A DNA stretch of 64,000 nucleotides, from contig JAIEPK010000479.1 of NCBI GenBank assembly GCA_019749875.1, positions 7,184 through 71,183 of the forward strand. The letters are read 5' to 3'. The first letter of the stretch is position 1, and the number at the start of each line of letters is the position of its first letter. The position numbers and the translations under genes are program-made. Source of the DNA: Candidatus Binatia bacterium (GTDB lineage Bacteria > Desulfobacterota > Binatia > UBA12015). The notes beneath the pieces are model-generated. The model was not told the DNA's origin. It saw only the letters and a program-made list of their open reading frames with translations, and searched no databases. Positions 38,501 through 64,000 of this stretch are shown here, piece by piece.

Positions 38501-38738
38501 TCACGCGTGGAGCCGAGATGAGCGCCGTGACGATCGGATATGTGACCTGATCCTCGATCAGAGGCGGGCTCCGGCCCTCCCACGTCGTGGTGACGATCAC
38601 CTGCACGTCGGACAAGTCGGGGATGGCGTCGATCGGAGTGTTCCGGAGTGCCCAGATGCCGCTTCCGACGATCCCCAGCATCAAGAGGAGGACGACGAAC
38701 GCGTTCCGCCCACTGAAGTCGATGAGCTTCTCGATCAT
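35592..38738 (-). CDS. cusA: Heavy-metal efflux RND transporter, CusA/CzcA family
   Basis: 1049 aa from MIEKLIDFSGRNAF, 12-TM RND architecture. The Cu(I)/Ag(I) HME clade is implied by context. ATG at 38736-38738. Confidence 0.9.
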   Translation of the reverse strand: MIEKLIDFSGRNAFVVLLLMLGIVGSGIWALRNTPIDAIPDLSDVQVIVTTTWEGRSPPLIEDQVTYPIVTALISAPRVKVVRGFSYFDVSFVYVIFEDGTDLYWARSRVLEYLNGLQGRLPSGVTPVLGPDATGVGWGFEYALVDRTGQYDLSRLRTLNDWYVQYWLRSISGVAEVAPVGGYVKQYQIEIDPKALLAYGIPIDAVTSAVRESNNDVGGRVVEWTGREYMVRGRGYIQSVADVEQIGLGAKPDGTPILVKDVGRVHLGPDMRRGVAELNGEGDVAGGIVVIRYGVDTYSVIENIKKAIKERIQPALPQGVEVVVTYDRSDLIERSIETLREKLVEEAIIVSLVCIVFLWHFRSALVAILTLPLSILLSFVAMRYIGLGSNIMSLGGIAIAIGAMIDAAIIMIENAHKHLEHDTGERPRRDVLIEAAQEVGRPLFFSLLIITVSFLPIFTLEAQEGRLFRPLAFTKTFAMGFAALMSVLVVPFLMVLFVRGKITPEERNPINRFLIWAYHPFVRFVLRHRAITIIAAIILMASTIPVFLKLGSEFMPPLYEGTLLYMPITLPGASVQTAQQILAVQDKLIKTVPEVESVFGKAGRSVSATDPAPLEMIETVINLKPESEWRSGMTPEKLEGELDRLVRVSGVANAWTMPIKARVDMLSTGIRTPVGIKIFGPKLDGINEIGAQIEGALNSVRGTRNVFAERVTGGYYVDFKIKRDQIARYDLKIKDVEMVIESAIGGANVTTTIEGRERFPVNVRYQREYRSDIDAIRRTLISTPRGIQIPIEQVAEISLSTGPTVIRTEQAQLLGYVYVDVADRDIGGYVDEAKRVVGEMVKVPEGYYLEWSGQYEYMLRAKDRLSVVIPVTLLLVIVLLYFNTRNPTKIVIVLLAVPFSLIGAFWLIYLLGYNLSVAVWVGIIALAGVDAETGVVMLLYLDHAYEKSVREGRMSSLEDLEASVEEGAVQRVRPKMMTVMAILLGLLPIMWGHGAGADVMKRIAAPMVGGVITSFILELLIYPVIFTIWKWHWEVKPTLEGGGSPRGA

Positions 38739-38748
38739 GCTCGTGCCT

Positions 38749-40095: not shown

Positions 40096-40109
40096 CAGCG
40101 CGCGACCAC

Positions 40110-46341: not shown

Positions 46342-46847
46342 CAGCTCCTCCGCTGCGCCAAGGGCACGACGAAGAGCTCGCCACCCTCGATCGTAGCCGG
46401 ATAGACGTCCAGCGGTCGCGGAGGAGGGCCTCCGATCACACGGCCGTCAATGTCGTACAACCCGTCGTGGCAGGGACAAAGAAAACGGTTCTCCTTCACC
46501 TGCCAATGATAGGCGCAGCCGAGATGTGTACAGCGCGGGTCGAAGACCAGAACATCGTCGGTGCTGCGCTTGACGACCCAGGCAGCGTGCCGACCTTCTT
46601 CGGTTACCCAGCCGTCACGCTGCCGCAGGACGAACTCGACCTTCTGAGGCTGGTTGGCTTGAAAGTCGCTCACGGCCCCGAGCCGTACGCGCAACGTCTC
46701 GCGCCGCCGGAGGAGCGGCCCGAGGAAATAGCCAACCAGCGGCGCCGCGAGGCCAAGACCAACCAGGGTGATGATCGACCAGAAGCAGCGCGCGAGCCAT
46801 TCTCGCCTGTCGACCGAGTCGCCCGCCCCCTGGATCACTTCGGACAT
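46341..46847 (-). CDS. Rieske 2Fe-2S protein
   Basis: CTHLGC and CPCHDG Rieske boxes with an N-terminal TM anchor. Confidence 0.85.
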   Translation of the reverse strand: MSEVIQGAGDSVDRREWLARCFWSIITLVGLGLAAPLVGYFLGPLLRRRETLRVRLGAVSDFQANQPQKVEFVLRQRDGWVTEEGRHAAWVVKRSTDDVLVFDPRCTHLGCAYHWQVKENRFLCPCHDGLYDIDGRVIGGPPPRPLDVYPATIEGGELFVVPLAQRRS

Positions 46848-47200
46848 AGACCACGAATGAATGCGAGCGTGTCGCGAATCTCGCTGTCGTCGAGCGCATC
46901 GGCGTATGGCGGCATATCCTTCGACAGCCCCCCCGCCGGGCCGCCGTCCTTGATCACGCGAAGTAGCTGCTCGTCGGTGAATGACGACATGCGCGCGCAG
47001 TCGGCAAGGTCCTTTGGCTTCGTTGCGAGCGTCGCGGCTTCTTTCCCATCGCCCTTACCTGCGGCGCCGTGGCACTTCGCGCACAGTTCGGCATACGTGG
47101 ATTTCCCGCGCGCGACATCTGGCTCGGCTGCGCGTGCCGTCAGCGCCGCCATGCCGATTCCCACCGCACACGCTGAAATCAAGAGAGCGTATCGCCTCAT
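46835..47200 (-). CDS. Periplasmic monoheme cytochrome c
   Basis: Signal peptide plus CAKCHG heme motif; distal Met likely in DMPPYA. Confidence 0.8.
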   Translation of the reverse strand: MRRYALLISACAVGIGMAALTARAAEPDVARGKSTYAELCAKCHGAAGKGDGKEAATLATKPKDLADCARMSSFTDEQLLRVIKDGGPAGGLSKDMPPYADALDDSEIRDTLAFIRGLCPK

Positions 47201-49097: not shown

Positions 49098-49617
49098 CAG
49101 TTGTGCTACATCTACTCCGATGGAATCGAGAGATCAAGGCGTCGAGGAACGACCGCATCACCCAGACGCGCAGCTGTTGGTGCCGAGCGTCCGCCTGGTG
49201 GTGTTTACGGCAGGCGCCACGGCGGACAACCCCAAATCCGGTTTGGTGTCGCCCGAGGGGGCGGCCCTGCCCAGCGGAATGCGAAATATGCGAGTGACAG
49301 CGAAGTCGTCCCGGCACCAATGCCGGCCAAGCAGGTGGTTCGGAAGTCGGGGAAGTGATTTCGGCGAGACCGAGCGGTGACTGCCGCTGGCTCACCCGGT
49401 TGCAGCAAGGCGAGGAAGGCATTCCCAAGGTCGAGGCCGACTATCTCGAGATCATTCGCGCTACTCCGTAGCGGTCGCGCTCGCAGTTCGGCGTGTTCGA
49501 CGTGCTGATTGCGCTCTCCTCTTCGACGACGCCGTGGTCGTTGGCTCCGGCAGCGTGACGACCCTGGGGCTTCGGCCGTAGCAGCGTGCCCACCGTGAGG
49601 TAGCGCCGCACGACGGC

Positions 49618-50150
49618 TCACTCGTCAAGCTGCTCGGCCAGTACCGCTCCCACGAGACGGATGATCGCATCGCGGTTCGGGAAGATCCCGACGACGTCGG
49701 TCCGCCGCTTCGGCTGGCGGTTGAGCCGCTCCGCGGGTTGTTCGACCAGATCTGTCGCCGGTGCTCCTTCGGCAAGCTTGCGAAGCCCAGCAGATCCGCC
49801 TCTCCGTCGCGCAGCAGCTCGGCAGCCGTAGGCCAGCGCGCTTCGAGCTGCTCGACGACACGCGCGTGCTGAGCCCGTGTGAGCTCCGCATCCGGTTCGG
49901 CGAAGACCATCCGCACCAGCGTCGCGACGAGCCCCTGTGCGCTCTTCGTCAGCAGGTTGCGCATGAAGTGCGTCCGACAGCGCTGCCACGCAGCCCCAGG
50001 CAGCGTCGCCGCGATCGCATCTCGGAGCCCGGCGTGCGCGTCCGAGATCGCGAGCTGCACGCCGCGCAGTGCGTATTCCGGCCGAGTCGATCGCCAATTC
50101 CGGTCGAAGCCGATCAGCGATGGTGTCGACCGGGCAGTTCGTCCGAGGAC
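49618..50150 (-). pseudogene. IS256-family (Mutator-type) transposase, C-terminal fragment, frameshifted and truncated by the IS481 insertion
   Basis: Frame A gives [28 protein letters not shown]...IWSNNP. Frame C then gives [37 protein letters not shown]. Together these match the IS256 Tnp C-terminus. The upstream part is missing at the IS481 boundary. Confidence 0.6.
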
Positions 50151-51542
50151 ATGGGTGACAGCTGTCCGGTCCACATAGGTGACAGCTTGCCCGATCCTGC
50201 TTCTTCCGTGTTCCTAATTCACCTCTTGCTTGATGGCGCTGCGAGTCCGATGCGGCGACAGAAGCGTTCTCTCACTTCACTCGCGCCCAGCACGTGACCG
50301 GTGGGCGAATCAGGCCGAGTTTGGAGCGTTCGTCTAGGAAGCCGAGCCGGACGGCTGCGAAGAAGACGTGGTGCATTTGGTTGGCCGTCTCGATGCCGAT
50401 CCATTCCCCTTCCAAGGCATGCCCGATCGTCACCATCGCGCTCTTCCAGCGGATGCGTCCGCTGGCCGCGACCTTTCGCATCTCGAAGTGCTCGGGGTAA
50501 TGCACGTCGGGCAGTCGGCGTGGGTACGATCGCGGGGATGGGCGGTAGCGCGACGACGGCGTCCCGTTTTGGAGAGCTTCGTGTGGCCGCTCCTCGTTGT
50601 ACTCTCGCTGGAACGCGTCGAATCGGAGCTGCTGGCGGCGCAGTGTGGCCGCAGGCGGACGAACGGTCTCTTGCTTGAGCGTGCGATGCATCCGCTCATG
50701 CCGTCCGTTCTGCTCGGGATGGCCGGGCTCGATGCGTTCGTGCCGAATTCCGAGCTTCACCCACCAGATCGAGAGCTGCGATAGTCCTCCCGCTCCACGG
50801 CTCGCGAATGGCGTACCGTTGTCCGTGCGGATGCGTTCGGGCAGACCGTACTCCCGAAACACATCCTCGAAAACCGGGCGGACGCGGATCGTCTTCGTCG
50901 ATCGAAGTGCCGTGCAGCGAAGCAGCGTGCGGCTGAAAGCATCGGTCACTGTGAGCGGATAGCATCGCCGCGCGTCGCCTGTCTTGAAGTCGCCCTTGAA
51001 GTCGGCACACCAGAGGCGATAGGGTTCGTCCGCCTCTGCAAAAGGATCCGTGTACGGAGGCGTTCGGCGTCGTGCCTGGCGGGCTCGTGAGCGAAGAGAG
51101 CGCTCACCGTGCTCGCGACTGGCAATTCGAGCCGTGGTTGCTTGACGGCGAGCCAGGCGAGAATCTCGCGCCCCCCCCAGTGCGGGTGCGAACGCCGCGC
51201 CTGGATCAACGCCTCGATGACAGCCGCATCGACCCTGCTCGGGTGCGTGATTGGCGCTCGCGAGCGATCTACGAGCCCGCTCGGCCCCTCTTCGTTGTAG
51301 CGAGCGACCCATTTGTAGGCCGTCTTGCGGCTCACACCGAACTGGCGAGCAAGCTCGCTCATCGGCTCCTCGCCCTTCATGTACGCACCGATCAGCACAA
51401 TTCGTTCGTCCACCCGTGACCGCTCCTTCCAGACCATCGATCGTTCCTCCCCGGAACGACCGAACCCGTCTGCCTTCAGCGTGTCACCTATGTGGGTCGG
51501 ACCGTTGTCGCCGATGTCGACCGGGCAGACTGTCACCCATGA
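50151..51542 (-). mobile_element. IS481-family insertion sequence (~1.39 kb) with imperfect terminal inverted repeats; transposase frameshifted
   Basis: Terminal repeats catgggtgacagctgtccggtccacataggtgaca (left) and tgtcacctatgtgggtcggacc...cagactgtcacccatg (right). The transposase N-terminus (HTH, ELARQFGVSRKTAYKWVARY) is in ORF 50946-51536. The DDE integrase core (LWCADFKGDF...TDNGTPFAS...HPEQNGRHERMHRTLK) is in ORF 50272-51312 in another frame. Confidence 0.7.
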
Positions 51543-52528
51543 TGCCGGGCGTTACCGGAATCAGTGATCGGCTCGCGCCGGAATCGGCGATCGGCTTGGG
51601 CCGGAACACGCCGACGCGAGTCCGCTGCCCGAGCGTGCCATCGTGTCCCTGACGGTCGTGAAGCCCATGTCGTCGCGATCGATCCCGTGGGCAGAGTTCA
51701 AGGGCTTTGACGCATGCGACACGATCGCTGCCACCAGCGTCGAGAACCTGATAATCACGACGGACTAACGGGCGCCTCGCTCTAGTCGACTCCTGCAACA
51801 TCGAGAATGGCTTCGCGCTCCGTCGACATCTTGACCTGCACGCGCTGCGGATCGCGTCAGACCCAGTCCGCGGCGGTTGCTCATGCCGCCGGCACGTCCT
51901 GGACTCGGCAGCTGACGCGGTCGGTCGTGCTCGGCGGTAGCCTCTGGCGCGGCGAGGGAGGAGGCACGTGGTCATCGACCGAGGAGACGGCGAGCGTATC
52001 CGAGACGCGGAGCGGCATCGCCGACATGGTAGAGCTGCCCGCACCGCCGGCGCGGCAAGACGTGCGGCGGGACGTCATCAAGCGGCTGCGCGCACTGCGA
52101 GCATCAAACGAGTGGCAGCGTGATCCGTCCTGCTTCCGCCAGCGGTTTGGCTTCGTGCTCATCGACCACACGAAGGCCTCCGCTCGAGCCGACGCTGAAT
52201 TCCAGCGTCGGCTCCGAGTCTAGAACTCCTTTGCACCAACTGGCGCAGGCTGATGCTGTGCTTGCAGTGCGGCAACATCTACGCCCCCTACCTGTACGGC
52301 GAGCTCGTCGCCGAAGGACGGCGACTCTACGAAGCGGGCGATCTTCGCACCGGGTCGCAACACCTCGACGAAACGCTTGCCGACTACGAGGAGCGCGTGC
52401 AGAACTTCGAGCCGCGCCTCTACCTTGCGACCTCGACCTCGTTCCTGCGCAAGACGCACGAACGAACGAGGTCGAGGAGCCCCACCGATTCGACGTCGAG
52501 CTCTCGACCCGAACGTGACAGAGCATCC

Positions 52529-52753
52529 TCAACTGCGTTTCATCTCACGCTCCAGCAGTTCGCGGATGAGCGCGCTCGCGTCAGGCCTTCCCCCTTCGGC
52601 GCCGACCAAGTCGAGCGCGCGCCGCCGGAGCCAGCTGTGCTGGTCGGGCGTCAGTAGGACCGTCACGGCGCGCAACCCCGATCGGCGCGACAAGCGCGCT
52701 TCCTGTCCCGAGACCTTACCCGTTGCCACTCCCCTCTTCCTCACCGTTGCCAT
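52529..52753 (-). CDS. Ribbon-helix-helix (CopG/ParG-like) DNA-binding protein
   Basis: 74 aa; VTVLLTPDQHSWLRRRALDLVGAEGG...ASALIRELLEREMK is typical of RHH fold proteins. Immediately downstream of the integrase. Confidence 0.5.
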   Translation of the reverse strand: MATVRKRGVATGKVSGQEARLSRRSGLRAVTVLLTPDQHSWLRRRALDLVGAEGGRPDASALIRELLEREMKRS

Positions 52754-52776
52754 GGTCTTCCTGCGCCTCGTCGCCG

Positions 52777-53817
52777 TTAGCTCGCGGCTCCACACCTCCT
52801 ATACGGCACGACCAACATCGCTGCAGCCTTCCGTTTGGCGGTCTCTCCTCGATGGTCGTAGCGCGCGGTCGTCGTGAGGCTCGCGTGTCCGGCGAGGCGC
52901 TGTACGAGGGCGAGGTCGACCCCCGCCTCGAGCAGGTCCGTGATGAAGGTTCGCCGCAGGTCATGCGGGGAAAAGCGCCGCCCGCCTGCAGCCACGCGTC
53001 GGCGATCGAGCGCCGCATAGATCGCCTGATCGGTCATCCCACGGAGCTCGAGGCGCCCTCCCTTCCGGACGCGGACGAACAGCCGGCCGGGGCCCATACC
53101 CCGCACGACGAGCCAGTCATCGAGCGCTGCCGCGGTGCCTCCGAGCGCGTAGACGACCCGCTCCTTGCGCCCTTTGCCGACTCGCACCCGGAGCTCGCCC
53201 GTGACGCGCGCGTAGTCGGATACATCGAGTCCGGCAGCCTCCGATCGCCGAAGGCCGCAGCCCACGAGGACCGCCAAGATCGCAGCGTCTCGGGCTCCTG
53301 CGGGCGTCCTGTCGTTGCCGCAGCATGCGAACAGCGCCTCGACCTCCTCGCGCGCGAGTCGCCGGCCGCGTGGCAGTTGGCTCCCTGTGACGAGCGCGAT
53401 GTCAGCCGCCTGCTGGTACTCCTCGGCTGTCATCTGACCGAGCCGCCATGCTTCGCGCAGCACTCCGCGGAGAGCCGCGATGAAGCGGTTCGCGGTTGCG
53501 CGGGCGCGCCGCTGCTCGATCAGCAGCGCGCGCACTCCGCTCGTTTGCCGGTACCGGAGCGAAGCCCACGGGATCATGTCCACGTCGTGGCTGCCACCCG
53601 AGAGCATGCGCGCGATCTCGGCAAGCGTCGCCCCCATTACACGCCGCGATGCGGGCGAGGTGAGCTGATGGAGGTAGACGCGGGCTGCGTTGGGGGTGGC
53701 CGGCGGATCCGGACAACCCGCGAGCGGTGAGCGATCGAGGCTCAGCGCCTGGGGCGACGTGGGACCTTGCTTCTTATCACGTTCGCAAAGTCCCACTTCC
53801 AAGGATTGTGCGCCCAC
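52777..53817 (-). CDS. Tyrosine-type site-specific recombinase/integrase
   Basis: Catalytic R..HDLRRTF..LGHASLTTTARYDH with Tyr in TARY. N-terminal SAM-like domain. Probable GTG start. Confidence 0.85.
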   Translation of the reverse strand: MGAQSLEVGLCERDKKQGPTSPQALSLDRSPLAGCPDPPATPNAARVYLHQLTSPASRRVMGATLAEIARMLSGGSHDVDMIPWASLRYRQTSGVRALLIEQRRARATANRFIAALRGVLREAWRLGQMTAEEYQQAADIALVTGSQLPRGRRLAREEVEALFACCGNDRTPAGARDAAILAVLVGCGLRRSEAAGLDVSDYARVTGELRVRVGKGRKERVVYALGGTAAALDDWLVVRGMGPGRLFVRVRKGGRLELRGMTDQAIYAALDRRRVAAGGRRFSPHDLRRTFITDLLEAGVDLALVQRLAGHASLTTTARYDHRGETAKRKAAAMLVVPYRRCGAAS

Positions 53818-54086
53818 GCCGCCATCATGTCAATACGTACGTACATCAATACAACAAGACTGTGATCACTTTCGCAAACGAGTGTTTTCATAAACGATCG
53901 GACCTGGCGGTAGCGCTTGGGCGGCTGTCCGGCTCGTCGCTGGCGATCAAAACCGGCCAACGAGGTGTCCACCAAATCCGCGGCGGACTCGACGTAGCTC
54001 GTACCGGCCGCACAGCGACGGCGAGTGTCTGCCAGTCGATCAACGCGAGCGCGGAATCACGAGCTTCTCCCGACGTACTCCGGCGC

Positions 54087-56606
54087 TCAGACCGCGATGA
54101 CCACTGGCACCTCGACGCGCGGTTCGATGACCTCGTAGACGCCCGGACCGAAGACGGAGACGATGAGCGAGAAGCGCATAACCTGCTCCTTCAGGTGGCG
54201 GCGCTGATCCCACCACCCGAGCACCGGGATGACTGCGAGGAGCTTGTCCCCGGCGAGCTCGGACATCTTGCCGCGCCACCGGTCGCTCTGGACCGTGCCG
54301 CGACTTCGAAGCTGCACGCCAAGATCCCACGGAAAGGACTTCGTGACGGCCACCTTCTGTCGCTTTCCATCTGGTCCCGTGGGGCGTTTCAGGGCGTTGA
54401 TGCGCTGCAAGAACGCGCTCTCCGATTCCTGTGGCCCCTGCATGTCCCACTTGAGATCGAGCCCGTGGAAGACGGTTCGTCCAAACTTGTTCGGCTCGGT
54501 GAAGTACGAGAGCGTCACGCGAAGCTCGACGTCGGGGTCGGTGTCGCCGAGCTGCTCGTTCGGGATCGGGAGACGAAAGACCATTAGCTTCCGCCGCAGC
54601 TTGGGTTCCGTCGTCCTCGTCGTGGGGCGCTTGGGCGGTTTCTTCTTCGGCTCGTCCTCGATCACCCCGTTCGGCATCGCATCCTCGACGACGACGGTCG
54701 CGCGCTCCTGGGCGCACTCGGATGCGAGCCGCTCGTCGGGCACACCGTATCCACAGGCCAGGACGCGATCGTTCATCCCACCGAACTGCTGAATCATCTC
54801 CTGGGTCCAGCTCGCCGAGTGCACGATGAGCCCGCGTATTGTCTCTGGCTGGAGCTTGGGCTCGACCGCCCAGATGCGCGCGGCGAGGTGGGCAGCTCGA
54901 GCGGTGGCTTCGCTCGTCATGGAGATCTGTCCAAGCGGTTGCCCGAGGGTATGCCGATGGCTCGTGGTCAGCGCGCTCAACGTCGGAACGCTCGCGTCTG
55001 GCAACGAACCCGAAATCGCCAGATTCCCGCCCTCCATCACGACATCCGGCTTGATCGGCCACTCGTTTCCAGCGAGCCCCGTGCTCGTGAACGGCGAGAT
55101 GCCACCTGGGCGCCTCGCTACGAGCTGCGCTTCCGCGTAGTCCTCCGAGGCCGGAAGCTCGACTCGAGCGGTGAACGCGCCCACCGTCAACGCGTTCGCT
55201 GCCTGAGCGGGTTGATGGATCTTCTCCGAGAGTTGAAGCTGCGGATGCTGCTCCGCGAGCGCCAGCCACAGCTCGTACCTGGCGTTTCCCGCGGAGACGA
55301 CAATCAGGCGCCCGTGGCCCTCGTGATGGGCGATTTGATCGATGGCGTGGCTCCAGAGCGTCGGTACCAGACCCTGCAGCGGCGGCTCCTGCATCGTTCT
55401 CGTGATCGCGAGGGCGAACACTCGACCGCGCGGGCGAGGATCGGCGTCCTCGGCCGAACGAACCGCTCCGAGCGTGAGGACCGGCCATTTCTCGTAGTTG
55501 TCATCCGACGCGGTGCCTTCGCCGGGCTGGACGAGCAGGCGGCTGCTCTGGAGCCAGTGCATCGCCGAGGCGCCGCCACGCTCAATCGCCGCGCCGAGAT
55601 CGCGGTAGAGGGCCACGCCAGCCATCTTCGTACCATGGCCGTGCGTATCTTCGGGCGATGGGATCAGATCGCCCGCCGTTGTCGCAGAGAGGATCGCCGG
55701 CTTCAGCAGCGGGTGGCCGGTTGCGATGCCCGTGTCGAGAATGACGACCGCGGGCGCGTCCGCGTCCGGCGCCTGCAAGAAGAAGTCCTTCACGTCCTTC
55801 GTGGTGACGTCCTCGAGCAGCCGGAGATCTCGCAGCGGCGGCGGAGCGAGCTCCACCTCGTAGATGCAGTCCGTCGCGGCACGCAGCGCTTCGAGCTGCG
55901 GCTGCGTGAGTCTCACGAAGAAGTAGACCTGCTCCGGCCCGATGAATTCATCGAGCCGCTCGTGGGGTGCACCCGCCCGGTACAGTTGACGAGCGATCTG
56001 CGCGCGGCTCTCTTCTGTCTCGGAGAGCGGACGGCGATAGCCACCGCGACAAGCGACCTCGAACCAGTACGGGCGATCGGCGACGAGGGCTTCCGCTCGA
56101 AGGCGCGGTCCACGCATGTCGTCGAGCTGGGCCAGGCCGATCGCGTCAACGGGGGCAATCGCGCGTTCCTTGTCACGATGGACGGTCGTGGTCCCGTCCT
56201 TCTCGGTCTTGCTTCGTGAGCGCGCATCATCGCCGAAGGCATCGACCTTGTCGCGAAGGTAGCCGAGGTGCGGTTTGGCGACGTCCAGAAGAACGGTACC
56301 TGTCTCCTGAACCACACCGATGAGGCGAGCATCTTCCCGGACGTCGTCGAGCTGCTCGGGTGTCAGCTTCGTGCCGGGCGAAGGGTGCACTGCGACGATC
56401 TCACGAGTCGCCAACTCGTCACGAGCAGTCTCCGCGCGCCCCTGAACCTGGCGCTCGATCGTGTCGAGCTGGGCGACGAGGCGAGCCCTAAGCGCCTGTG
56501 GATCGAGAGACGGGAGTTTCGGTGGTGCGCCGCCGCGCTGCGGCGCCTCGTAGGTGTCGACCGCGGAGACACGTCCGCGAAGAAGCGGTAGTCGCTCTTC
56601 GGCCAT
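54087..56606 (-). CDS. S8 family subtilisin-like serine peptidase with long N- and C-terminal extensions (839 aa)
   Basis: Catalytic Asp in VVILDTGIATGHP and His in HGHGTKMAG. Oxyanion Asn in VVSAGN. Probable Ser in ISMTSEATARAAHLAA. About 270 aa of extension before and ~250 aa after the core. Confidence 0.85.
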   Translation of the reverse strand: MAEERLPLLRGRVSAVDTYEAPQRGGAPPKLPSLDPQALRARLVAQLDTIERQVQGRAETARDELATREIVAVHPSPGTKLTPEQLDDVREDARLIGVVQETGTVLLDVAKPHLGYLRDKVDAFGDDARSRSKTEKDGTTTVHRDKERAIAPVDAIGLAQLDDMRGPRLRAEALVADRPYWFEVACRGGYRRPLSETEESRAQIARQLYRAGAPHERLDEFIGPEQVYFFVRLTQPQLEALRAATDCIYEVELAPPPLRDLRLLEDVTTKDVKDFFLQAPDADAPAVVILDTGIATGHPLLKPAILSATTAGDLIPSPEDTHGHGTKMAGVALYRDLGAAIERGGASAMHWLQSSRLLVQPGEGTASDDNYEKWPVLTLGAVRSAEDADPRPRGRVFALAITRTMQEPPLQGLVPTLWSHAIDQIAHHEGHGRLIVVSAGNARYELWLALAEQHPQLQLSEKIHQPAQAANALTVGAFTARVELPASEDYAEAQLVARRPGGISPFTSTGLAGNEWPIKPDVVMEGGNLAISGSLPDASVPTLSALTTSHRHTLGQPLGQISMTSEATARAAHLAARIWAVEPKLQPETIRGLIVHSASWTQEMIQQFGGMNDRVLACGYGVPDERLASECAQERATVVVEDAMPNGVIEDEPKKKPPKRPTTRTTEPKLRRKLMVFRLPIPNEQLGDTDPDVELRVTLSYFTEPNKFGRTVFHGLDLKWDMQGPQESESAFLQRINALKRPTGPDGKRQKVAVTKSFPWDLGVQLRSRGTVQSDRWRGKMSELAGDKLLAVIPVLGWWDQRRHLKEQVMRFSLIVSVFGPGVYEVIEPRVEVPVVIAV

Positions 56607-56609
56607 GGA

Positions 56610-57593
56610 TCACCCCCTGGCCGGCAACTCGCGTCGCTTCAGCTCCTCGAGGGCGTGGACAACATCGTGTTCGCTGATCTCTTCGCGGTCGTCGAGAGCC
56701 ATCGTCCGAACCGAGTCGTCGCACGCCCGCACGACATCCGCGAAGCTCCAGCCATCCGCTTGTGAGGCGAGCTGCTCCGCCTGTGCCTCCGTCAGCCCGA
56801 TCGTTCCCAAGCGCAAGTTGAGGAGGTCGACGATCTGGTCTCGCGTCGGCCTCTCGAAGGGGACGATCACGTCGAACCTACGGAACACCGCGCGGTCGAG
56901 CAGCTCGACGTGGTTCGTGGCGGCCACGAGAATGCTCCCGCTGACGTCCGCGTCGACGAGCTGAAGGAACGCTGTGACGACACGATTCATCTCACCGACG
57001 TCCTGCGAGTCACCTCGGGCCTTCGCGACTGAATCGAACTCGTCAAAGAGATAGACACCGGGGCGACGCGGCATCTCGGCAAAGATCGCCCGCAGCTGAA
57101 CCGCCGTCGCGCCCAGGAAACGCGAAAAGAGTGCGTCGAAGCGCACGGTCATCAGCGGAAGACCCATCTCGCCGGCGAGCACAGCCGCCGCCAGCGTCTT
57201 CCCGCAACCCGGAGCACCGTGGAACAGTAAACGGCGCCTTGGCGAGACCCCAAACCGTTCGAGGCGACTGCGCGACCGATTCTCTGAGATCACCCTGAGC
57301 AGAAGATCGCGAACGTCGGCCCGCAAGACGATGTCGCGCAGCCGCTCGTCGCGATGTCCGCCCTCGAGGATGTCCGCAAGCTCGCCACGAGGGCTGGCGA
57401 TGTCGACGATGGGGCCAGGCTTCCGAGCACCAGCCGCGGGCATCTTCGCGACGATCGCTCGGATCTCATCGGCAACTCGGACGTGGCCGGCAGTGCTCTC
57501 GGCCGCGGCAAGTTGCAACGCGGCCTTTCGAAACGACGACTCGTCGCCCTCGGCATGCGACTGTAGCAGCACCTTGAGGATGTCCGCCTTCAT
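56610..57593 (-). CDS. AAA+ ATPase (classical AAA, SpoVK/CbbX-like single-domain) with ~110-aa N-terminal domain
   Basis: Walker A LLFHGAPGCGKT, Walker B VYLFDEFD, sensor-1 ILVAATN, Arg finger LDRAVFRRFD. Start MKADILKV, with an AAGGGAAG RBS. The ATG overlaps the upstream TGA (ATGA). Confidence 0.85.
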   Translation of the reverse strand: MKADILKVLLQSHAEGDESSFRKAALQLAAAESTAGHVRVADEIRAIVAKMPAAGARKPGPIVDIASPRGELADILEGGHRDERLRDIVLRADVRDLLLRVISENRSRSRLERFGVSPRRRLLFHGAPGCGKTLAAAVLAGEMGLPLMTVRFDALFSRFLGATAVQLRAIFAEMPRRPGVYLFDEFDSVAKARGDSQDVGEMNRVVTAFLQLVDADVSGSILVAATNHVELLDRAVFRRFDVIVPFERPTRDQIVDLLNLRLGTIGLTEAQAEQLASQADGWSFADVVRACDDSVRTMALDDREEISEHDVVHALEELKRRELPARG

Positions 57594-57799
57594 CTCGCTG
57601 CTTCCCTTGGCGCGAGAATCTGCCGCCTCAGGTTCAGGACTAGTTTTCGCTGATAGAGCCGGTACCCGTTCATCGGGTGCCGGCGGGCACGCAGCTTGCC
57701 GGCCTTGTCCCACCGCCGAAGGGTCTGCTCGCTGACGCCCAGCAGCTCGGCTGCAGCCTTGATCGTGAGAACGTCGGGGACTGTCGCTTCGCGGGCCAC
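57590..57799 (-). CDS. Excisionase/AlpA-like MerR-superfamily HTH DNA-binding protein (start uncertain)
   Basis: LTIKAAAELLGVSEQTLRRWDKAGKLRARRHPMNGYRLYQRKLV matches the HTH_17/Xis pattern. Possible GTG start at 57799; the longer ORF runs to 57931. The stop overlaps the AAA ATPase start. Confidence 0.55.
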   Translation of the reverse strand: MAREATVPDVLTIKAAAELLGVSEQTLRRWDKAGKLRARRHPMNGYRLYQRKLVLNLRRQILAPREAAR

Positions 57800-58278
57800 T
57801 CGCGCGAGGGCTATACAACCTTGATCATGGACGCAAGATCTCGTCGGGCTCTCGTGGCGTGTGGCTCCCGGGAGGATCCTCTGAGGATCTTCCCGGAGTC
57901 GCCACCTGAGCGGCCGATCGCGGTGTGCCACTCGGCGTCGCTCAAGAGTGGGCTCTGCGGCTCGCCGTACCTCTGCTCGTTGGCTGCGTGCTCTTCATGC
58001 CGCTCATCAAGTATCTCGAGCTGTTACGCCGTGGTGCGAATGGCTCTCGCGGGAGGCCCCTGACGAGGCCGACGGCAAGTCTCTCGCCCCGACTCGGCAT
58101 TTGACCTCGTCGCCGCGACAGCGAGCATGCCGGCGTTGGATTCCCGGACCGAGAACCCCTTGACCAGATCGCTGACAAGGATCAACCGCGGCGAGCGCTG
58201 CTCCCACCTTCAGGCGGCCGACCGGCACGGGGATCTCGGGCGGGGGAGCCGGGCGCAACAGCCGACGAGGGTCGACCT

Positions 58279-58440
58279 CTAGAGAGCGGCCGCGATGCTG
58301 ACCAGCATCGCGAGGGACAGGGTCGTCCGCGCCCGCTCGACCTCCTGAATGGACCGTGGGCAACCTGCGCCTCGCGAGCCAGCTGCTCTTGCGTCACGCC
58401 GCGCCGCTCGCGGAGCCGACGAACGTTCGTCGCCCAAGGA
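58279..58440 (-). pseudogene. XRE-family HTH gene disrupted by a frameshift
   Basis: Frame 3 gives NVRRLRERRGVTQEQLAREAQV. Frame 2 gives AGCPRSIQEVERARTTLSLAMLVSIAAAL. Together they reconstruct a Cro/C1-type HTH (ELA..AGVSRS.IS.IERG...L..L..IA.AL) split by a 1-nt shift near gaggcgcaggttgcc. Confidence 0.35.
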
Positions 58441-58478
58441 ACGCGCCCATCTTCCCGTCGATCCGTCCGTCGATCCGT

Positions 58479-58973
58479 TCACAGCGCCTCGATGAACAGC
58501 CGCGGATCTATTCCAAAGAGCTGGGCCAACTCCAGTGCAGCGGTATGGAACGCCTCGCCGTGCTCATCAGGCTCAAAATGTCGGTGCAGCGTACGGTCCG
58601 CCGCAAGAGCTGCGCCTTCCGGGGTGACATTACCGGCAACGATTTTGTCCTCGTACTCGTGCACGAACTCGTGATGGAGATCGCGCTCCCAGATAGGATA
58701 GCCATCGGGAGGAGGCGTCGAAGGAAGGTCCGTCGTTGAAGGAGTGGCCGGCACCTGGTCGAGGTCGAGGCCCGTCGCTATCCCAAGGATGATCTCATTC
58801 CTGCTCGATCGGTAACCCGACGTGATCGCGGCGTCGAGGACCAGCAGCGTCGCCTTCACACGACCCGCGCCACGGCTCCCTATGGCCTTGTCCCACATTC
58901 GGTCGTATCGCTTCCGTACGCTGGCAAGCTTGTCAGCGGGAATGAACGGATACCCATACGCGCTCGTTCGCAT
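58479..58973 (-). CDS. Hypothetical protein with HExxH motif (possible small Zn-metallopeptidase, ImmA/IrrE-like)
   Basis: 164 aa from MRTSAYGYPF, with a GGAGTGGAGG RBS upstream. Contains DLHHEFVHEYED, i.e. HEFVH. No confident family. Confidence 0.45.
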   Translation of the reverse strand: MRTSAYGYPFIPADKLASVRKRYDRMWDKAIGSRGAGRVKATLLVLDAAITSGYRSSRNEIILGIATGLDLDQVPATPSTTDLPSTPPPDGYPIWERDLHHEFVHEYEDKIVAGNVTPEGAALAADRTLHRHFEPDEHGEAFHTAALELAQLFGIDPRLFIEAL

Positions 58974-59857
58974 CAACCTCCACTCCCCGAAGCGCGCGCG
59001 TAGGCCTGTCGCGTCCCCCTCGGACGCGCTCACCACGAGCCCCTTGCTCCGACCGACCACTCAGCCCGGCCTACTCCGAATACTGCGGCAGAGTGGTCGC
59101 TGGTTGCGTACCGCATCAACGCAATAGTTGGCAAGCGAATTCTCCTCATCCTCCCCTGTTCGCAGGCTCTAGTACGAGGTCTGGGTCATCGCGACCCTTC
59201 CCGTTTCTCGAGATGAACGCACTTCCTCCCTTGCTTGACTCACAGTGTTGGGCTGCAGCCGCAACCGTCGATAGCGGCAGCTCGGTATTCTCGGGAGCGC
59301 CGGATCGACCGATCGGCACGTTCGGGCTGAACCACGGTCGCGTCGAGAGTCGCATCCAGAATGGCGGGACAGCTCGTCTGCGAACACGCGTCGAGATACT
59401 CAAAGGTTCCCTTGCCCTCGAGGTGGAGGGTCGGCTCTGCAGCGCTTGCCGCGCCTATCCTTCCCAGGCACACGACGACGCTCACAATAGCGACCAGGTC
59501 GGCCGTCCAGCGGTACATGGCGGCGGCTATCGCGCGACGGTCCACCCTGATCAAGTCGCCAAATCATGTGCTGCTCGCGTGTTGCCCTCAGCAGCGCTGT
59601 GTGGTCGACGATCGGTGCCAGCCAGTACGCTCGATCGACGCCTTCGCGCTGTAGGTCGGCATTCGGGAGGAAGCGTCCCTCGGGACGAACGTTCCGCCGC
59701 AGTCGGCGTTTCATCCCGCGTGATGCCCCGACGCTGAAACCCGACGACAGCGGCGATCTTTATTCCTCGGCGCGTTCATCTTCTCGCGATGACGTATCAC
59801 CACCGCGGTCGCCCGACTTCTCGAGGACCTCGCGTCACGGCCGAGCAGTGAGCTGGG

Positions 59858-60244
59858 CTATGCGTGCGCGAACCTGGCCACGATGAAGCCGGTGAGTAAC
59901 AGCGCGCCGACCCACAGCAGGACGATCACCACGGCTGCCGCGGTGCTCACTGGCCGGCCGTTCGCGAACGCCTCGCCTGCGCGCGCCCGGCAGTCCTCCA
60001 TGATCTCGGCCGGAACGAGGCGGACAGCGAGCGCGATCCCGAGCGGGACAAGAAGCAGGTCGTCGACGTAGCCGAGCACTGGGACGAAGTCGGGGATGAG
60101 ATCGATCGGGCTGAGCGCGTAGGCAGCCACGACGGCGACGAACACCTTCGCGTACCACGGGGTGCCGGGGTGGCGCGCTGCCAAGTAGAGCGCAAGCGTC
60201 TCGTGCTTGAGGGCTCGGATGCGCTCTCTCCAGGATTGCTGCAT
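59858..60244 (-). CDS. DUF1232 (YkvA-like) membrane protein
   Basis: [44 protein letters not shown] is the DUF1232 signature. Confidence 0.65.
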
Positions 60245-62319
60245 AGCTGGTCCAGGACGCATCCTAGTCGCTCACCGCGCCTGCCGGGTGAAGCGGATGA
60301 CGCTACGCCGGAGTCGGCGATCTCCGCATCCACGACTTGAGGCACGCGGTCGGAAGATAGCTCGGCTCGGCGAGAACGCGTTCGTGATCCGTCGGCGCCC
60401 TCGGCCGTAGGGATAGGGACCGCGAACCTCGAGCTCGAGGCGACACGCCCGCTCATTCGGGCGCCTCAGGAGTCTTCGCATCGACGGCGTCCTTCCTGCG
60501 TCGCGCCGCGTGCGGATCGCGGTCCATCAGCTTCGCGTGGTTCGCCTTGAAGGGCTTGCAGAGGAGGCATCCCGCGCGGCGGTTATTCAGGCGCGCGTCG
60601 CTTGTGGTGCATCTGTTCTCTCCGAAGGCGGTGCGCCTCGACTCGCCGGGCCTCGATGCGTCAAGCTGCGTTCCGGCCCCAGCGGACGGCCGTCATGCGG
60701 CGATGGATTGCCGGCAGCTTACACACCGTTCCGTGCGAACGAACGCGTTCCATCTCGGCGCTACACTCTTGCTCCCGACTTCCGCGCTCGGTCAAGCGTC
60801 GCCAAGGAGTGCGCCGCCAAGCGACCCCCGCGCGCCACCGGTTCGAGCTGACCTCGCTCTGACAGCGCCGGGCACACCAACGGCGGTGTGCGGCGTCCGT
60901 GCAATCGTGATGCGCTGTCCGTGCGACGGCAGCCGCGAAGGGTACGACCATTGCGTCGTCCGCAGAATCGACCGGGCGATCACGAACAGCGTCGTGCCGC
61001 GCTCGTGTCGTTCGCGGCTCATGGCGTTGCTCCGTCATACGCGCCGTGGGCGCCCCAGCGCGGCGACGTGCTGCCGCACCAGCGCCGATGGAACGCCGAA
61101 GGCCTTCATCGCGCGCGACGCGGAATCGTGCCGCCCCAACGTCAAGGACAGGCAGGATGTCCCGCGCAACGACGACGCACCGCGCATGCTGGTCGCAGAT
61201 CGATCTAGCGTTCGGGGGAGTCCGCATGCGTCACGTCCCCGCCGTGCGGCAACGGCAAGCTGGATCCGGGAGAAGTGCGAAGCAGATCGTTCTCGTCTTC
61301 TAGGAGATCGCGCGCGCAACAGGCGAAGGATCCCGGCGACGGGGCGGCCGATGCCGGCCGCCCACCGCGACGAGCGAGCTGAGCGGCGCAACGACGCGGC
61401 CCAGCCGCGACCGTCGCCCGAGCCCGTTGTACGCGGGCCGATCCGATCTTCGAGGTGAGGCTTGTACGTGCGAGGATCGAGGACTTGTTCGCGCTTCTCC
61501 TTGCTCAAGACATTGGCCGGCGTGGGTTTCACTCCCGTCGCCGCCGTCAACGTCCCGGCGCGCTAAGCCCCGTTGGCCGGTTTCAGGCGTCCATCGATGG
61601 CCGATCTTGGGTGTCGCCGCGGCGCGCGTCGCGAACCAGTTCAGGAGTCAGGCTGCGCTCCAAGGCCGGACCTTCAAGGATGTGCTGGATGAGGCGTTGC
61701 GTGACTGGCTGAAGACGAGTCGCCGCCGGGGCAAGATCGCCGATCGATAGCCTGTCCCGGGCTGCCGTCCCAGCGGCCGCCTACAGCAGCGATCTCACCA
61801 TGCGCGCGATTCTGGGCCGGCACACGCCTCAGGAGGACGTCGATGCCCGTCCCGTGGCACCGCGGAGAGCACCCGAGGAAACCGCTTCCCGTGTGCGCTG
61901 CGGCGTCCACCGCCGGATTGAGGCTCCGGGGCCCTCGACCACGTGAAGAGTTCACCAATGGGCACTCCCAGCGACACCGCACTCCGCGCTACGTTCGCAT
62001 TCGACGCACCGCTCCCCTTCCTAGACGTAGCGAGCCGCGTCAGCTGCGCGAGCGCAGTCCTCCCGGCTTACACCTCGACGCGCGCGTCACGCCCCGCACG
62101 TGCCGGCGCGAGCACCATACCCCGCACGCACTGACGTGCATCTCGTCGCCGCTCGACACGACTACGCCGCCTGCAGCGGTTTCCGAGGCGTCCTTCGTGC
62201 GCCGCACGCCCCACTGTTGCACTTGATGCGCCAACCCCGGCCGCACGCCGAAGACTATTCGATTTTGGGTTATTCGATCCGAGGATGCTCAGTGCTCCCC
62301 GCGCGCGACGGCCGGGGCG

Positions 62320-62847: not shown

Positions 62848-63192
62848 ATGCATCCCACAGTCCAGCATCCGGTGTGCCGCCGCTGCGGCCAACAGGTTCC
62901 AGCTCGAGCTCACTTCTGCACGGCATGCGGCACTCCGCTGGAACCCGTTTCCTCGCCGTGGCTCTCGAAGCTCGAGGCCCGGCTAGTGCCGGCCAGCAAG
63001 GTGTTCACATCGGTCGGCATCCTGAGCCTGATCGTATGGCCCGCCGTCATGGCCAGTCCCTTGTACGTGCCGGGCGAGCATCCCGAGTTCGGCCTCCTCG
63101 TGACGCTCGCCTGCGCCCTCGGAGGCCTCGCCCTTCCGCTCGGCCTCCGCCTCAGAGAGACAACACAGGCGGAACGCGAGGCGACGCGATGA
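62848..63192 (+). CDS. Double zinc-ribbon domain membrane protein
   Basis: CRRCGQQVPARAHFCTACGTPL, then two TM helices. The earlier start at 62821 is also in frame. Confidence 0.55.
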   Translation: MHPTVQHPVCRRCGQQVPARAHFCTACGTPLEPVSSPWLSKLEARLVPASKVFTSVGILSLIVWPAVMASPLYVPGEHPEFGLLVTLACALGGLALPLGLRLRETTQAEREATR

Positions 63193-63986
63193 CGTGCCCC
63201 GGCTGCAGCCACGAGGTCGTGCTGGAGACGGCGAAGCACTGCCCAGAATGCGGCTCACCTCTTCCGATCCTATGTGGGGCGTGCGGATCCGAGAATCCTG
63301 CCGGATCGAGGTTCTGCGCCGAGTGCGGGCGGCCGCTTCGCCAAGCCTCCGCCGATGCCGGCGCCACCGCCCTCGCGCCGCCTAGCAACGCGCCCTCACG
63401 GGAGACGGCCGGGGTGATCTTGAAGGCGGCAGATGCGCAGGCGGCCCATCATGGCGATCAGCGGGCGGAGATCGCGGCGCCAACGAGTCCGACCGTTCGG
63501 AACGACGCGACCGAAGCGGGAAGCGAGCCACCCAACCCCCAGGGGCTGGTCACTGCCTCCTACGTGTGCGCCGTCGTCTTCCCCCTCGCGGGATTCGTAC
63601 TGTCAATCATCACTCTCGTCCGCGGAAGACTGGGGCACGGCCTCGCGGCGCTCGCTCTGTCTCTCTCGATGGCGCTCTTCTGGATGGGCATCCTCCAAGG
63701 GTTCATCAGCGCCGTCGACGTCCAGACGTACGTCAGCTGTCAGCCGTCACTCGCCGGGATGAGCTGCGCGGTCGAGCGCCGCTCCGGCGATGCGCCCGCG
63801 ACGGTTTGTTGGGACGTGACAATCACGTGCCACAATGGGGTCACGGCAGTGGCGAGCGGCTGCCATCCCGTTCCGCCCGGCGTGGGATCAAAGTCCAGTC
63901 GAACGATCGGGTACTCCGACATCCGACGCTGGAACGACTGCGACGCGGTAGAGACGATGGCGGTCGCCAACCTGCGACTCTCATAG
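63189..63986 (+). CDS. Double zinc-ribbon domain membrane protein (tandem partner, ATGA-coupled)
   Basis: CPGCSHEV...CPECGSPLPILCGACGSENPAGSRFCAECGRPL, then two TM helices and a Cys-containing C-terminal domain. The ATG overlaps the previous stop. Confidence 0.6.
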   Translation: MTCPGCSHEVVLETAKHCPECGSPLPILCGACGSENPAGSRFCAECGRPLRQASADAGATALAPPSNAPSRETAGVILKAADAQAAHHGDQRAEIAAPTSPTVRNDATEAGSEPPNPQGLVTASYVCAVVFPLAGFVLSIITLVRGRLGHGLAALALSLSMALFWMGILQGFISAVDVQTYVSCQPSLAGMSCAVERRSGDAPATVCWDVTITCHNGVTAVASGCHPVPPGVGSKSSRTIGYSDIRRWNDCDAVETMAVANLRLS

Positions 63987-64000
63987 GACGACCGAGAGCG

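Follow-up and report, generated by a model that had tools for sequence, protein, structure and literature searches.

The genes on the minus strand between positions 57799 and 54087 of the 64-kb window, by which we mean the whole stretch of DNA that was analysed, are predicted from their sequences to form a three-gene anti-phage operon of the IetAS type, comprising an HTH gene, IetA and IetS. In the reading that we consider moderately probable, this operon would be the functional core of a mosaic accessory segment in a high-GC environmental bacterium, and the genes encoding a tyrosine integrase (int) and a small RHH-like protein would constitute a cassette directly downstream of it that is transcribed separately from its own promoter/operator. 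The AT-rich stretch in front of the integrase gene is, with respect to its sequence features, best read as this promoter/operator rather than as an att site. The coordinates of all features are compiled in Table 1.

Table 1. Features annotated in and around the analysed interval, with positions given in window coordinates.
Feature	Position	Strand	Evidence or remark
IS256-family transposase fragment (IS debris)	49461-50174	-	Pfam Transposase_mut; IS256 annotations of similar plasmid DNA
IS481-family element (IS debris)	50148-51518	-	Pfam rve, LZ_Tnp_IS481; 37-nt inverted repeats
Homology breakpoint, candidate left edge of transferable block	52528	.	blastn of L002/L003 versus window
Small basic RHH-like protein, 74 aa from ATG at 52753 (probable start)	52529-52753	-	ORF extends to GTG at 52795
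Tyrosine recombinase, phage/integrative-element family, intact	52777-53817	-	PF00589 1.7e-30; phrog_1 integrase 1.7e-41
Hairpin, 12-bp stem and 14-nt loop	53756-53799	-	Inverted repeat and RNA fold
14-nt direct repeat, copy 2	53776-53789	-	Downstream of -10 hexamer, within hairpin
AT-rich integrase promoter/operator region (predicted)	53795-53921	-	GC minimum, promoter-like match, repeats, relatives
14-nt direct repeat, copy 1	53865-53878	-	About 30 nt upstream of -35 hexamer
IetS-type S8 subtilase, 839 aa	54087-56606	-	PADLOC IetS PDLC02198 2.3e-40, profile 187-739 of 795
IetA-type AAA+ ATPase, 327 aa from ATG at 57593	56610-57593	-	PADLOC IetA PDLC02196 1.4e-74
MerR/excisionase-type HTH gene, 69 aa, first in operon	57590-57799	-	PF00376 1.8e-13; HTH_17 6e-09; PADLOC mad1 7.8e-13
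XRE-family HTH pseudogene	58279-58450	-	Inactivated by loss of 1 nt each in G/C runs at about 58445 and 58358
Zincin-like HExxH protein, 164 aa, undescribed family, intact	58479-58973	-	Motif HEFVHE; family conserved

The genes of the putative defence operon are tightly packed, as the IetA and IetS genes are separated by 3 nt and the stop codon of the HTH gene overlaps the start codon of the IetA gene (ATGA). IetAS, also written IteAS, is an anti-phage system that was reportedly described by Gao et al. in 2020. In the PADLOC alignment of IetA, residues 76-395 were matched to profile positions 3-323 of 374, and the protein contains the Walker A motif GAPGCGKT and the Walker B motif DEFD. The longer IetA reading frame that extends to 57818 represents a shadow extension. 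The subtilase IetS matched PF00082 at 3.9e-42, contains the catalytic triad D291 (DTGI), H324 (HGT) and S565 (TSEA), and showed a dN/dS ratio of 0.09. The exact 327-aa IetA sequence was detected on 14 public contigs, and an exact look-up of the 839-aa IetS sequence yielded no match. Both proteins missed the NCBIfam equivalog cut-offs by far, with 211 versus 510 bits for IetA (NF042959, IteA) and 64 versus 900 bits for IetS (NF042956, IteS), indicating a divergent branch for which the equivalog names are not justified. The defence module recurs with 69-85% nucleotide identity in about 15 other loci, mostly from Myxococcota metagenome-assembled genomes and always without an integrase, and the homology with these loci is restricted to positions 54103-57840. 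The closest of them, L084 and L012, have ordinary genes on their flanks and likewise lack an integrase. The HTH gene is retained upstream of IetA in 8 of the approximately 17 closest loci (L004, L011, L084-L087, L090 and L092). This operon makes up the main content of the interval and had been missed by the original prediction, whose integrase, RHH-like and HExxH features were all recovered at or near the positions that it had given.

The deduced integrase carries the catalytic residues R190, K215, H285, R288, H311 and Y320, which are invariant in the family alignment. Its translation probably starts at the GTG codon at 53796 or at the TTG codon at 53802; approximately 38 N-terminal residues are unconserved, and the dN/dS ratio was 0.26 for the core and 4.6 for the N-terminal tail of the protein. 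An identity as Xer or integron integrase was rejected, since the scores remained under the curated cut-offs of XerC (124 versus 335), XerD (93 versus 330) and IntI (59 versus 265). PF00589 was the only domain detected in the integrase by Pfam analysis, and an arm-binding domain was not found. Relatives of the integrase are located at the end of integrative elements carrying Prim-Pol or D5-primase genes, and more than 40 IMG/VR contigs carry such relatives (59 matches by profile query), while a single-protein query of IMG/VR yielded no close relatives.

The RHH-like gene is located 24 nt downstream of the integrase stop codon. Its product is 96% identical in amino acid sequence in the related loci L002 and L003 and is subject to strong purifying selection (dN/dS 0.06), and searches of Pfam, NCBIfam, PDB and Foldseek provided no match. 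A single-sequence AF2 model predicted a strand and two helices for residues 28-73 with pLDDT values of 72-86. A beta-alpha-alpha secondary structure, predicted with moderate confidence, is the sole basis of the putative RHH assignment.

The integrase and RHH-like genes appear to mark one edge of a conserved block. The loci L002 and L003, which represent a 92%-identical relative, share with the window the 3' end of the IetS gene, the spacer, the integrase gene and the RHH-like gene, and diverge directly after the RHH-like stop codon at 52528. Similarity past this break was absent also at the protein level, and the outer flanks of L002 and L003 were not found anywhere in the window. An explanation of the break as an IS end, with the IS256 fragment resuming past the IS481 insertion, was rejected, as no transposase signal was detected in positions 51519-52528. 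The original prediction of an integrase-bounded island is upheld in part: the accessory nature of the segment and a position of the integrase at the apparent edge of a transferable block are supported, whereas neither flanking repeats nor a compositional boundary were found. A comparison of the junction at 52470-52590 with the region 53.8-64 kb, with seeds down to 9 nt, revealed only chance-level 10-mers, and the candidate att repeat GCGTTTCATC, present at 52535 and 59706, was rejected because the sequence shared with L002 runs 7 nt beyond it. The GC content, GC3 and codon adaptation of the int, IetS and IetA genes equal those of core genes and the GC skew is flat, so that the proposed use of GC skew and codon usage as boundary markers was not informative. 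As had been noted before, the window is devoid of tRNA genes, and this extends to tmRNA genes over its whole length; known RNA families were not detected between 51 and 60.5 kb. A right boundary of the block was not recognised in the window and may lie outside it.

The proposed comparison with related genomes likewise provided neither an empty site nor direct repeats among the contigs compared. All near-identical public contigs, which belong to the same population, carry the block in the same arrangement and include no empty site, and the mobility of the block is thus inferred rather than demonstrated. Metagenomes that contain this population include SRR25280074-76, SRR26348422, SRR30616677 and SRR29398966. 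Relatives of the core genes with an 80%-identical cytochrome b showed no synteny past cytochrome c (to the right of about 47.2 kb) among the matches listed, and neither these relatives nor those of a 153-aa protein of the left flank provided an informative contig for an empty site among the matches listed. A megablast search of PLSDB with the region 52-60 kb gave no plasmid match. Since the junction of IetS, int and the RHH-like gene is common to the 92%-identical relative and homology then breaks, the int-RHH cassette may be regarded as the left arm of a block that would have been moved as a unit.

A rather unlikely alternative is that the int-RHH pair represents the stranded remnant of a Prim-Pol/D5-primase-type element that came to lie beside IetAS in a graveyard of mobile DNA and plays no role in moving the defence genes. 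The primase and helicase genes that accompany the relatives of the integrase are absent here, IetAS modules occur elsewhere without an integrase, IS256 and IS481 debris and a pseudogene are located nearby, and att repeats were not found. Moreover, the synonymous divergence of the integrase gene from L003 amounts to 0.24 and is more than twice that of the neighbouring IetS and RHH-like genes (0.10), which hints at a separate history of the integrase gene. On the other hand, the architecture of the IetS-spacer-int-RHH junction is identical in a second lineage with 92% nucleotide identity and a different outer flank, indicating that IetS and the int-RHH pair travel or persist together. The integrase and RHH-like genes are furthermore intact and under purifying selection, and the breakpoint coincides exactly with the cassette's outer end, where an element would be expected to terminate.

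The spacer between the 3' end of the IetS gene and the 5' end of the integrase gene contains the AT-rich stretch that had been highlighted as unusual. This observation is fully confirmed, as the region constitutes the most extreme GC minimum and the sole place in the 64-kb window with an 83-nt GC content of at most 0.47 (0.02% of all such windows), the GC content of positions 53818-53900 being 0.42; the background is 65.5% instead of the supposed value of about 70%. The original prediction had named a promoter of the S8 operon as the refuting alternative, but the orientation makes this impossible, since the stretch is located downstream of the S8 gene. It contains the only sigma70-like promoter match in the region 52.3-59.4 kb, facing the integrase gene and consisting of the minus-strand hexamers TTGACA (53833-53828) and CACAAT (53810-53805) with a 17-nt spacer, to which the AT-richness of the stretch can be ascribed. 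Both hexamers are conserved in L002, L003 and L168-L172, and AT-rich -10-like regions followed by a palindrome are present upstream of related integrase genes in L173, L174 and L176. The promoter is a consensus match only, with a weak -10 hexamer. It is located inside the longest integrase reading frame, which forces a downstream and nearly leaderless start.

Several repeated motifs surround this promoter. A perfect 10-bp palindrome, TACGTACGTA, is located at 53834-53843 and the heptamer TCAATAC occurs twice within the AT-rich region. The direct repeats of ttcgcaaa that had been reported are indeed present in two copies, but they lack significance on their own, as at least two matches occurred in 29 of 100 shuffled sequences; the genuine repeat is the 14-nt sequence TTTGCGAAnGTGAT, which is present in two copies on the minus strand (0.03 expected) and occurred twice in none of 100 shuffles. 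Copy 2 is invariant across all related contigs and copy 1 shows a single T/C variant in L002, L003, L169 and L171. The motif TTTGCGGAAGCGAT is also located at the same position at the 5' end of a 65%-identical integrase gene in L001, internal to the L001 element. The hairpin that encloses copy 2 starts at the candidate GTG start codon, where the transcript is also predicted to begin, and its folding energy of -25.6 kcal/mol (z -3.2) was equalled by none of 200 shuffled sequences. Its stem is invariant in relatives and the sequence immediately downstream is hypervariable, and a hairpin upstream of the integrase gene was not a general feature of 24 viral loci in which it was sought. Taken at face value, these elements suggest that a sigma70-type -35/-10 pair drives the integrase gene, with the copies of the 14-nt motif bracketing the promoter and a stable hairpin at the start of the transcript. 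The repeats and the hairpin would most likely be sites at which a small DNA-binding protein holds integrase expression low. The obvious candidate for such a binder is the RHH-like protein encoded on the same transcript, which would imply autoregulation.

It is improbable that the AT-rich stretch is instead a recombination site of the integrase, as had been proposed originally with an att/arm-type site. In this reading the site would be similar to attP or attL, with TCAATAC-GTACGTAC-ATCAATAC as core and the 14-nt repeats as accessory or arm-type sites. The stretch adjoins the integrase gene, as attP often does, and contains short direct repeats as well as a perfect palindrome. The 14-nt repeat is furthermore non-random, and the 65%-identical integrase locus shares it at the level of DNA despite a lack of conservation of the overlapping codons; the polymorphism between strains is concentrated in the stretch and the 5' half of int. 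However, the stretch lies within the block that L002 and L003 have in common with the window, is collinear in all relatives and is thus not a junction, and a second or even partial copy of its core is absent from the 64 kb. Moreover, the flanking heptamers are direct repeats, whereas core-type sites are inverted, the motif shared with L001 is located between the integrase gene and the rest of that element and not at an end, the integrase consists of the catalytic and core-binding domains and lacks an arm-binding domain, and the promoter hexamers account for the AT-richness. A more far-reaching proposal, to which we likewise attach a low probability, is that a minimal integrase-mobilised defence cassette begins with the RHH-like gene and extends either over about 5.3 kb to include the HTH gene or over about 6.5 kb to include the HExxH gene. 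One anti-phage operon would then be moved solely by a self-regulated int-RHH module whose 14-nt motif is shared with the integrases of primase-bearing elements. If true, this would suggest that integrase modules of one family exchange their cargo between satellite-like elements and bare defence operons.

On the far side of the operon, the frameshifted XRE gene of the original prediction was corroborated. The HTH sequence is spread over two frames in a three-frame translation, and a 57-aa protein resulted when a single base was put back near 58445 and another in the C-run at about 58358. The repaired protein matched HTH_3 at 6.5e-11 and, at 1e-9, repressor families of phrog, while the unrepaired fragments matched nothing. 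As three independent metagenome contigs (L167-L169) contain the split sequence without any difference, the frameshifts do not represent a sequencing error of this window. The adjacent HExxH protein belongs to a family of about 54 representatives; HExxHE and a distal GH are invariant, and neither this protein nor its 33 relatives matched Peptidase_M78/DUF955 or any other Pfam or NCBIfam model. With its SprT-like fold, it belongs to the small zincins and is neither by sequence nor by fold an M78-type ImmA protein. The assumption that both genes are the decaying remains of a switch of the ImmA/ImmR type, by whose protease and repressor the island was formerly controlled, is very improbable: the genes are adjacent, co-oriented and 27 nt apart, the repaired XRE protein resembles phage repressors and the neighbour has a zincin fold with invariant HExxH and distal H, but M78 similarity is missing in the protein and its 33 relatives, the order of protease and repressor is opposite to that of immR-immA, the HExxH gene is followed by a Ser/Thr kinase gene in L166, the one further context seen, and the pair was found neither with the integrase in contigs of the L002/L003 type nor at any other IetAS locus. 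The split XRE gene and the zincin-like gene may rather be separate neighbours.

The location of IetAS beside an integrase gene corresponds to the usual layout of an accessory "defence island", and the current understanding, according to which defence systems beside integrases are the rule and not the exception, remains unchanged. The data add a divergent three-gene HTH-IetA-IetS branch from uncultured soil bacteria to a poorly understood defence system. They also include one lineage in which the defence operon is physically joined to an intact integrase cassette and which thus provides a handle on the movement of individual defence operons. With the 14-nt repeats on either side of the promoter and the 5' hairpin, the region in front of the integrase gene furthermore represents a compact example, amenable to testing, of how an integrase is controlled.

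With respect to known systems, the HExxH protein can be compared with zincins of the SprT/Spartan/Wss1 type and with minigluzincins, to which it shows 5-15% identity and no Pfam SprT-like match; its third ligand is apparently the distal GH, about 33 residues past HExxH. The ImmR/ImmA pair of ICEBs1 and the IrrE/DdrO pair, each consisting of an XRE repressor and an M78 HExxH protease, resemble the present locus in that a HExxH gene is located beside an XRE-family HTH gene, whereas here the protease is non-M78, the two genes stand in reverse order, the XRE member of the pair is a pseudogene and the pairing is absent in the one other context available (L166).

The integrase shares its catalytic signature and size with the tyrosine integrases of phages and integrative elements (PF00589; PHROG 1), which occur terminally in prophages, satellites and genomic islands, and it resembles them in its position at a block edge with the 3' end outward and in its relatives in IMG/VR and in primase-carrying elements. 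It differs from them by the absence of an arm-binding domain, of a tRNA or other recognisable target and of att repeats, by the small RHH-like gene that follows it and is absent from its relatives, and by a block without replication or transfer genes. The defence operon, which belongs to an uncultured high-GC host and is known here from sequence alone, is distinguished from the IetAS prototypes of E. coli by the additional, translationally coupled MerR/excisionase-type HTH gene upstream. It resembles them in the succession of an AAA+ ATPase gene and a large S8 subtilase gene, adjacent and on one strand, in strong PADLOC matches over most of both profiles and in intact Walker motifs and catalytic triad. 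The setting in variable DNA associated with mobile genetic elements is likewise that of E. coli, in which ietAS has been observed inside prophages and other integrated elements (bioRxiv 10.1101/2022.08.21.504612).

All genes in the interval under study are located on the minus strand and are listed in the table. The integrase, AT-rich stretch, split XRE gene and HExxH gene of the original prediction were all recovered, and the 64 kb contain neither a tRNA gene, in agreement with the initial reading, nor a tmRNA gene. The overall GC content of the window is 65.5%, not the background of about 70% that had been assumed.

Positions of genes and intergenic segments in window coordinates
Feature	Coordinates	Strand	Length
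HExxH ORF	58973-58479	minus	
Split XRE reading frame	58450-58279	minus	
Gap between XRE frame and HTH gene			480 nt
MerR/excisionase-type HTH gene	57799-57590	minus	69 aa
AAA+ ATPase	57593-56610	minus	
S8 subtilase	56606-54087	minus	
Spacer between S8 subtilase and tyrosine recombinase			270 nt
Tyrosine recombinase	53817/53796-52777	minus	
Small basic ORF (RHH-like)	52753-52529	minus	

The ATPase and the subtilase matched the PADLOC models of the anti-phage proteins IetA (1.4e-74) and IetS (2.3e-40), respectively, and the NCBIfam models IteA and IteS ranked best, with scores well below their equivalog cut-offs. Both the Walker A and B motifs of the ATPase and the Asp-His-Ser triad of the subtilase are retained. 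The IetA family models start at Met76 of the long ATPase ORF, the stop codon of the HTH gene overlaps the IetA start codon (ATGA), and the exact 327-aa IetA product is present on 14 public contigs; codons 1-75 of the long ORF are shadow sequence. The HTH gene product matches PF00376, HTH_17 and the PADLOC model mad1. Since this gene also precedes IetA in eight related loci, the HTH, IetA and IetS genes constitute a three-gene operon.

Nucleotide homology to approximately 15 loci, for the most part from Myxococcota MAGs, is limited to positions 54103-57840 (69-85% identity), and the integrase, RHH-like, XRE and HExxH genes are absent from all of these loci. The neighbouring genes in the two closest ones (L084 and L012) encode a GDSL lipase, an NHL-repeat protein, a SLAC1 channel and a formyltransferase. 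As the homologous loci lack the integrase and the closest ones lie among ordinary genes, the defence module is a cassette that is distributed on its own. The closest genome matches of the operon (54087-57799) were Myxococcota MAGs (80-87% amino acid identity), whereas the named homologues of the cytochrome b/c fusion (44623-47185) belong to Candidatus Binataceae (55-60%; unnamed homologues up to 98%). This taxonomic mismatch is consistent with a lateral transfer of the defence module.

The deduced recombinase contains PF00589 as its only domain and keeps all catalytic residues; an identity as XerC, XerD or IntI was rejected, as the scores remained under each cut-off. Thousands of homologues share about 55% identity. 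Four genomic contexts of related integrase genes were inspected, three of which (contigs L001, L173 and L174) place the gene at the end of a small element with a Prim-Pol or D5-type primase/helicase, and the fourth (L176) amid core genes. A profile scan of IMG/VR yielded 59 relatives, more than 40 of them with 42-55% identity and many close to contig ends. In two JGI contigs, L002 and L003, identity to the window is 92% over a segment that starts within IetS and runs through the spacer and the integrase to the RHH-like gene. Comparison with L003 yielded dN/dS values of 0.06 for the RHH-like gene (dS 0.11), 0.09 for the IetS 3' end (dS 0.10), 0.26 for the integrase core (dS 0.24) and 4.6 for the N-terminal 31 codons of the integrase (dS 0.04), which are effectively free of constraint. 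This hypervariable N-tail (residues 8-38; 53704-53796) differs from L003 by 12 non-synonymous changes and one synonymous change. Polymorphisms among near-identical populations are mostly found in the 5' half of the integrase gene and the spacer (53250-54000), and IetAS is nearly invariant. At 2.4 times the value for its neighbours, the integrase dS suggests allelic recombination. The integrase thus looks functional, with a history somewhat separate from that of its neighbours. The designation of the small basic ORF as RHH-like has a beta-alpha-alpha prediction of moderate confidence as its sole basis, and profile and fold searches provided no support for it.

The AT-richer stretch upstream of the integrase is real and exceptional, as positions 53795-53921 are the sole place with an 83-nt window at a GC content of 0.47 or less (minimum 0.40). 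The ttcgcaaa repeats noted there are not significant as 8-mers, but they belong to a longer direct repeat of 14 nt, TTTGCGAAnGTGAT, which is confined to 53776-53789 and 53865-53878 (0.03 expected). A function as promoter of the S8 operon, once considered as the refuting alternative, is impossible because the stretch is located downstream of IetS. Between 52.3 and 59.4 kb there is a single sigma70-like promoter match, TTGACA (53833-53828) and CACAAT (53810-53805) separated by 17 nt on the minus strand, and it falls into this region. One repeat copy precedes the -35 hexamer by about 30 nt and the other is located just 3' of the -10 hexamer, within a hairpin (53799-53756; 12-bp stem, 14-nt loop, -25.6 kcal/mol, z -3.2) that starts at GTG 53796. 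The hexamers, the second repeat copy and the hairpin stem are unchanged in the 92% lineage as well as in the same-species contigs, and the next 70 nt are hypervariable. An AT-rich segment is also found upstream of the integrase genes of L173, L174 and L176; it has a good -10 hexamer followed by the palindrome TGAGAAT-N5-ATTCTCA, with a perfect TTGACA-17-TATTAT match in L174. In L001, with an integrase of 65% identity, TTTGCGGAAGCGAT occupies the position equivalent to the second repeat copy. In these four contigs the motif separates the integrase from the rest of the element and is never at the element end. An att/arm-type site, as suggested originally by the AT-richness and the repeats beside an integrase, is an unlikely reading that has no positive support. 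Since the window contains no second copy of the stretch and the integrase lacks an arm-binding domain, we interpret the stretch as the promoter of the integrase, with putative operator sites and a hairpin at the 5' end. The likely autoregulator of the integrase would then be the RHH-like protein that is co-transcribed with it. A family-wide hairpin was not shown among 24 viral loci. The palindrome, in the form (ACTTA)TGAGAAT-N4-6-ATTCTCA, is found directly 3' of a -10-like hexamer and upstream of or overlapping the integrase start in several relatives (L173, ~7975-8010; L174, ~7965-8000; L176, ~7950-7980; also L192 and L204) and is absent from most IMG/VR integrase relatives.

The XRE coding sequence is broken across two frames, and restoration of two single bases, both in G/C runs, yielded a 57-aa protein matching HTH_3 (6.5e-11) and phage repressor PHROGs. 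As the identical split sequence occurs in three independent public contigs, the frameshifted gene is a genuine pseudogene, and its split is not due to a read error. The HExxH protein falls into a small and as yet undescribed family of ~150-aa proteins (54 representatives at E <= 1e-3 among 1.84 billion) with an invariant HExxHE motif and distal GH. The two genes had been interpreted as a possible ImmA/ImmR-like pair in decay. As the gene next to a 51%-identical HExxH homologue on contig L166 is, on the downstream side, a Ser/Thr kinase gene, the protein could not be assigned to ImmA/IrrE and this interpretation is unlikely. At 58455-58478, the HExxH stop codon and the ATG of the XRE pseudogene are separated by a spacer that consists of a perfect 12-nt tandem duplication (ACGGATCGACGG x2, minus strand).

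The proposed integrase-bounded island is partly supported. L002 and L003 diverge from the window directly after the stop codon of the RHH-like gene (52528), past which no protein-level similarity to the window was detected, and their outer flanks were not found anywhere in it. This breakpoint, the MGE-type integrase family and the autonomy of the IetAS module argue for an island, as do the IS256 and IS481 debris at 49.5-51.5 kb and the lack of synteny right of ~47.2 kb, the end of the cytochrome bc genes, in two relatives with an 80%-identical cytochrome b. On the other hand, no att repeats flank the block, the suggested mapping of GC skew and codon usage revealed no compositional or codon-usage step, and neither an empty site nor a right boundary was found among the matches listed. 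Between 52312 and a point beyond 64000, and also on the left flank, every same-population contig is collinear with the window. In the same population, five independent short-read contigs end within 57881-58463, a 580-nt interval that includes the gap separating the HTH gene from the XRE pseudogene. Three of them (L170, L171 and L172) approach it from the left and two (L164 and L165) from the right, and three others read through; these ends are a weak hint that a strain-variable junction could be present. L164 is 98% identical to 58463-60905, and its first 38 nt (1-38) are unlike the window beyond 60905; this mismatch at 60905/60906 is possibly a second variable junction or an assembly artefact.

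In the region 49461-51611, an IS481-family element (50148-51518) with 37-nt inverted repeats (84%) lies directly against a truncated IS256-family transposase gene (49461-50174). Since in the public contigs L184 and L186 from the same population the IS256 fragment is joined to the opposite end of an IS481-like copy (95-96% identical), the arrangement is polymorphic or inverted among samples. To the left of the RHH-like gene, an uncharacterized stretch of 1 kb contains (51670-52223) a paralogous copy of the right-end gene pair (63189-64000 plus ~250 nt past the window end, L167 1-254). A remnant in it resembles the C-terminus of the double-zinc-ribbon protein (32% over 34 aa), and the N-terminus of ORF 51807-52223 (MASRSVDILTCTRCGS...) shares 65% identity over 37 aa with the next gene past 64 kb. 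These direct-oriented paralogues, ~12.3 kb apart, are too diverged for att duplications. RND efflux genes (OEP, MFP, AcrB; up to 95% amino acid identity) and an NTP-transferase gene immediately precede the cytochrome bc cluster in the related contig L179 and are located elsewhere in the window (35592-41561 and 8009-8890), a placement that indicates a core-region rearrangement between the lineages.

The IetAS system reportedly goes back to Gao et al. 2020. In E. coli, ietAS is located within integrated elements (preprint 10.1101/2022.08.21.504612). The known systems closest to the locus are IetAS and ordinary integrase-associated defence islands; in comparison with known IetAS systems, the locus is divergent, equipped with an HTH gene and, in at least two lineages, linked to an integrase-RHH cassette.
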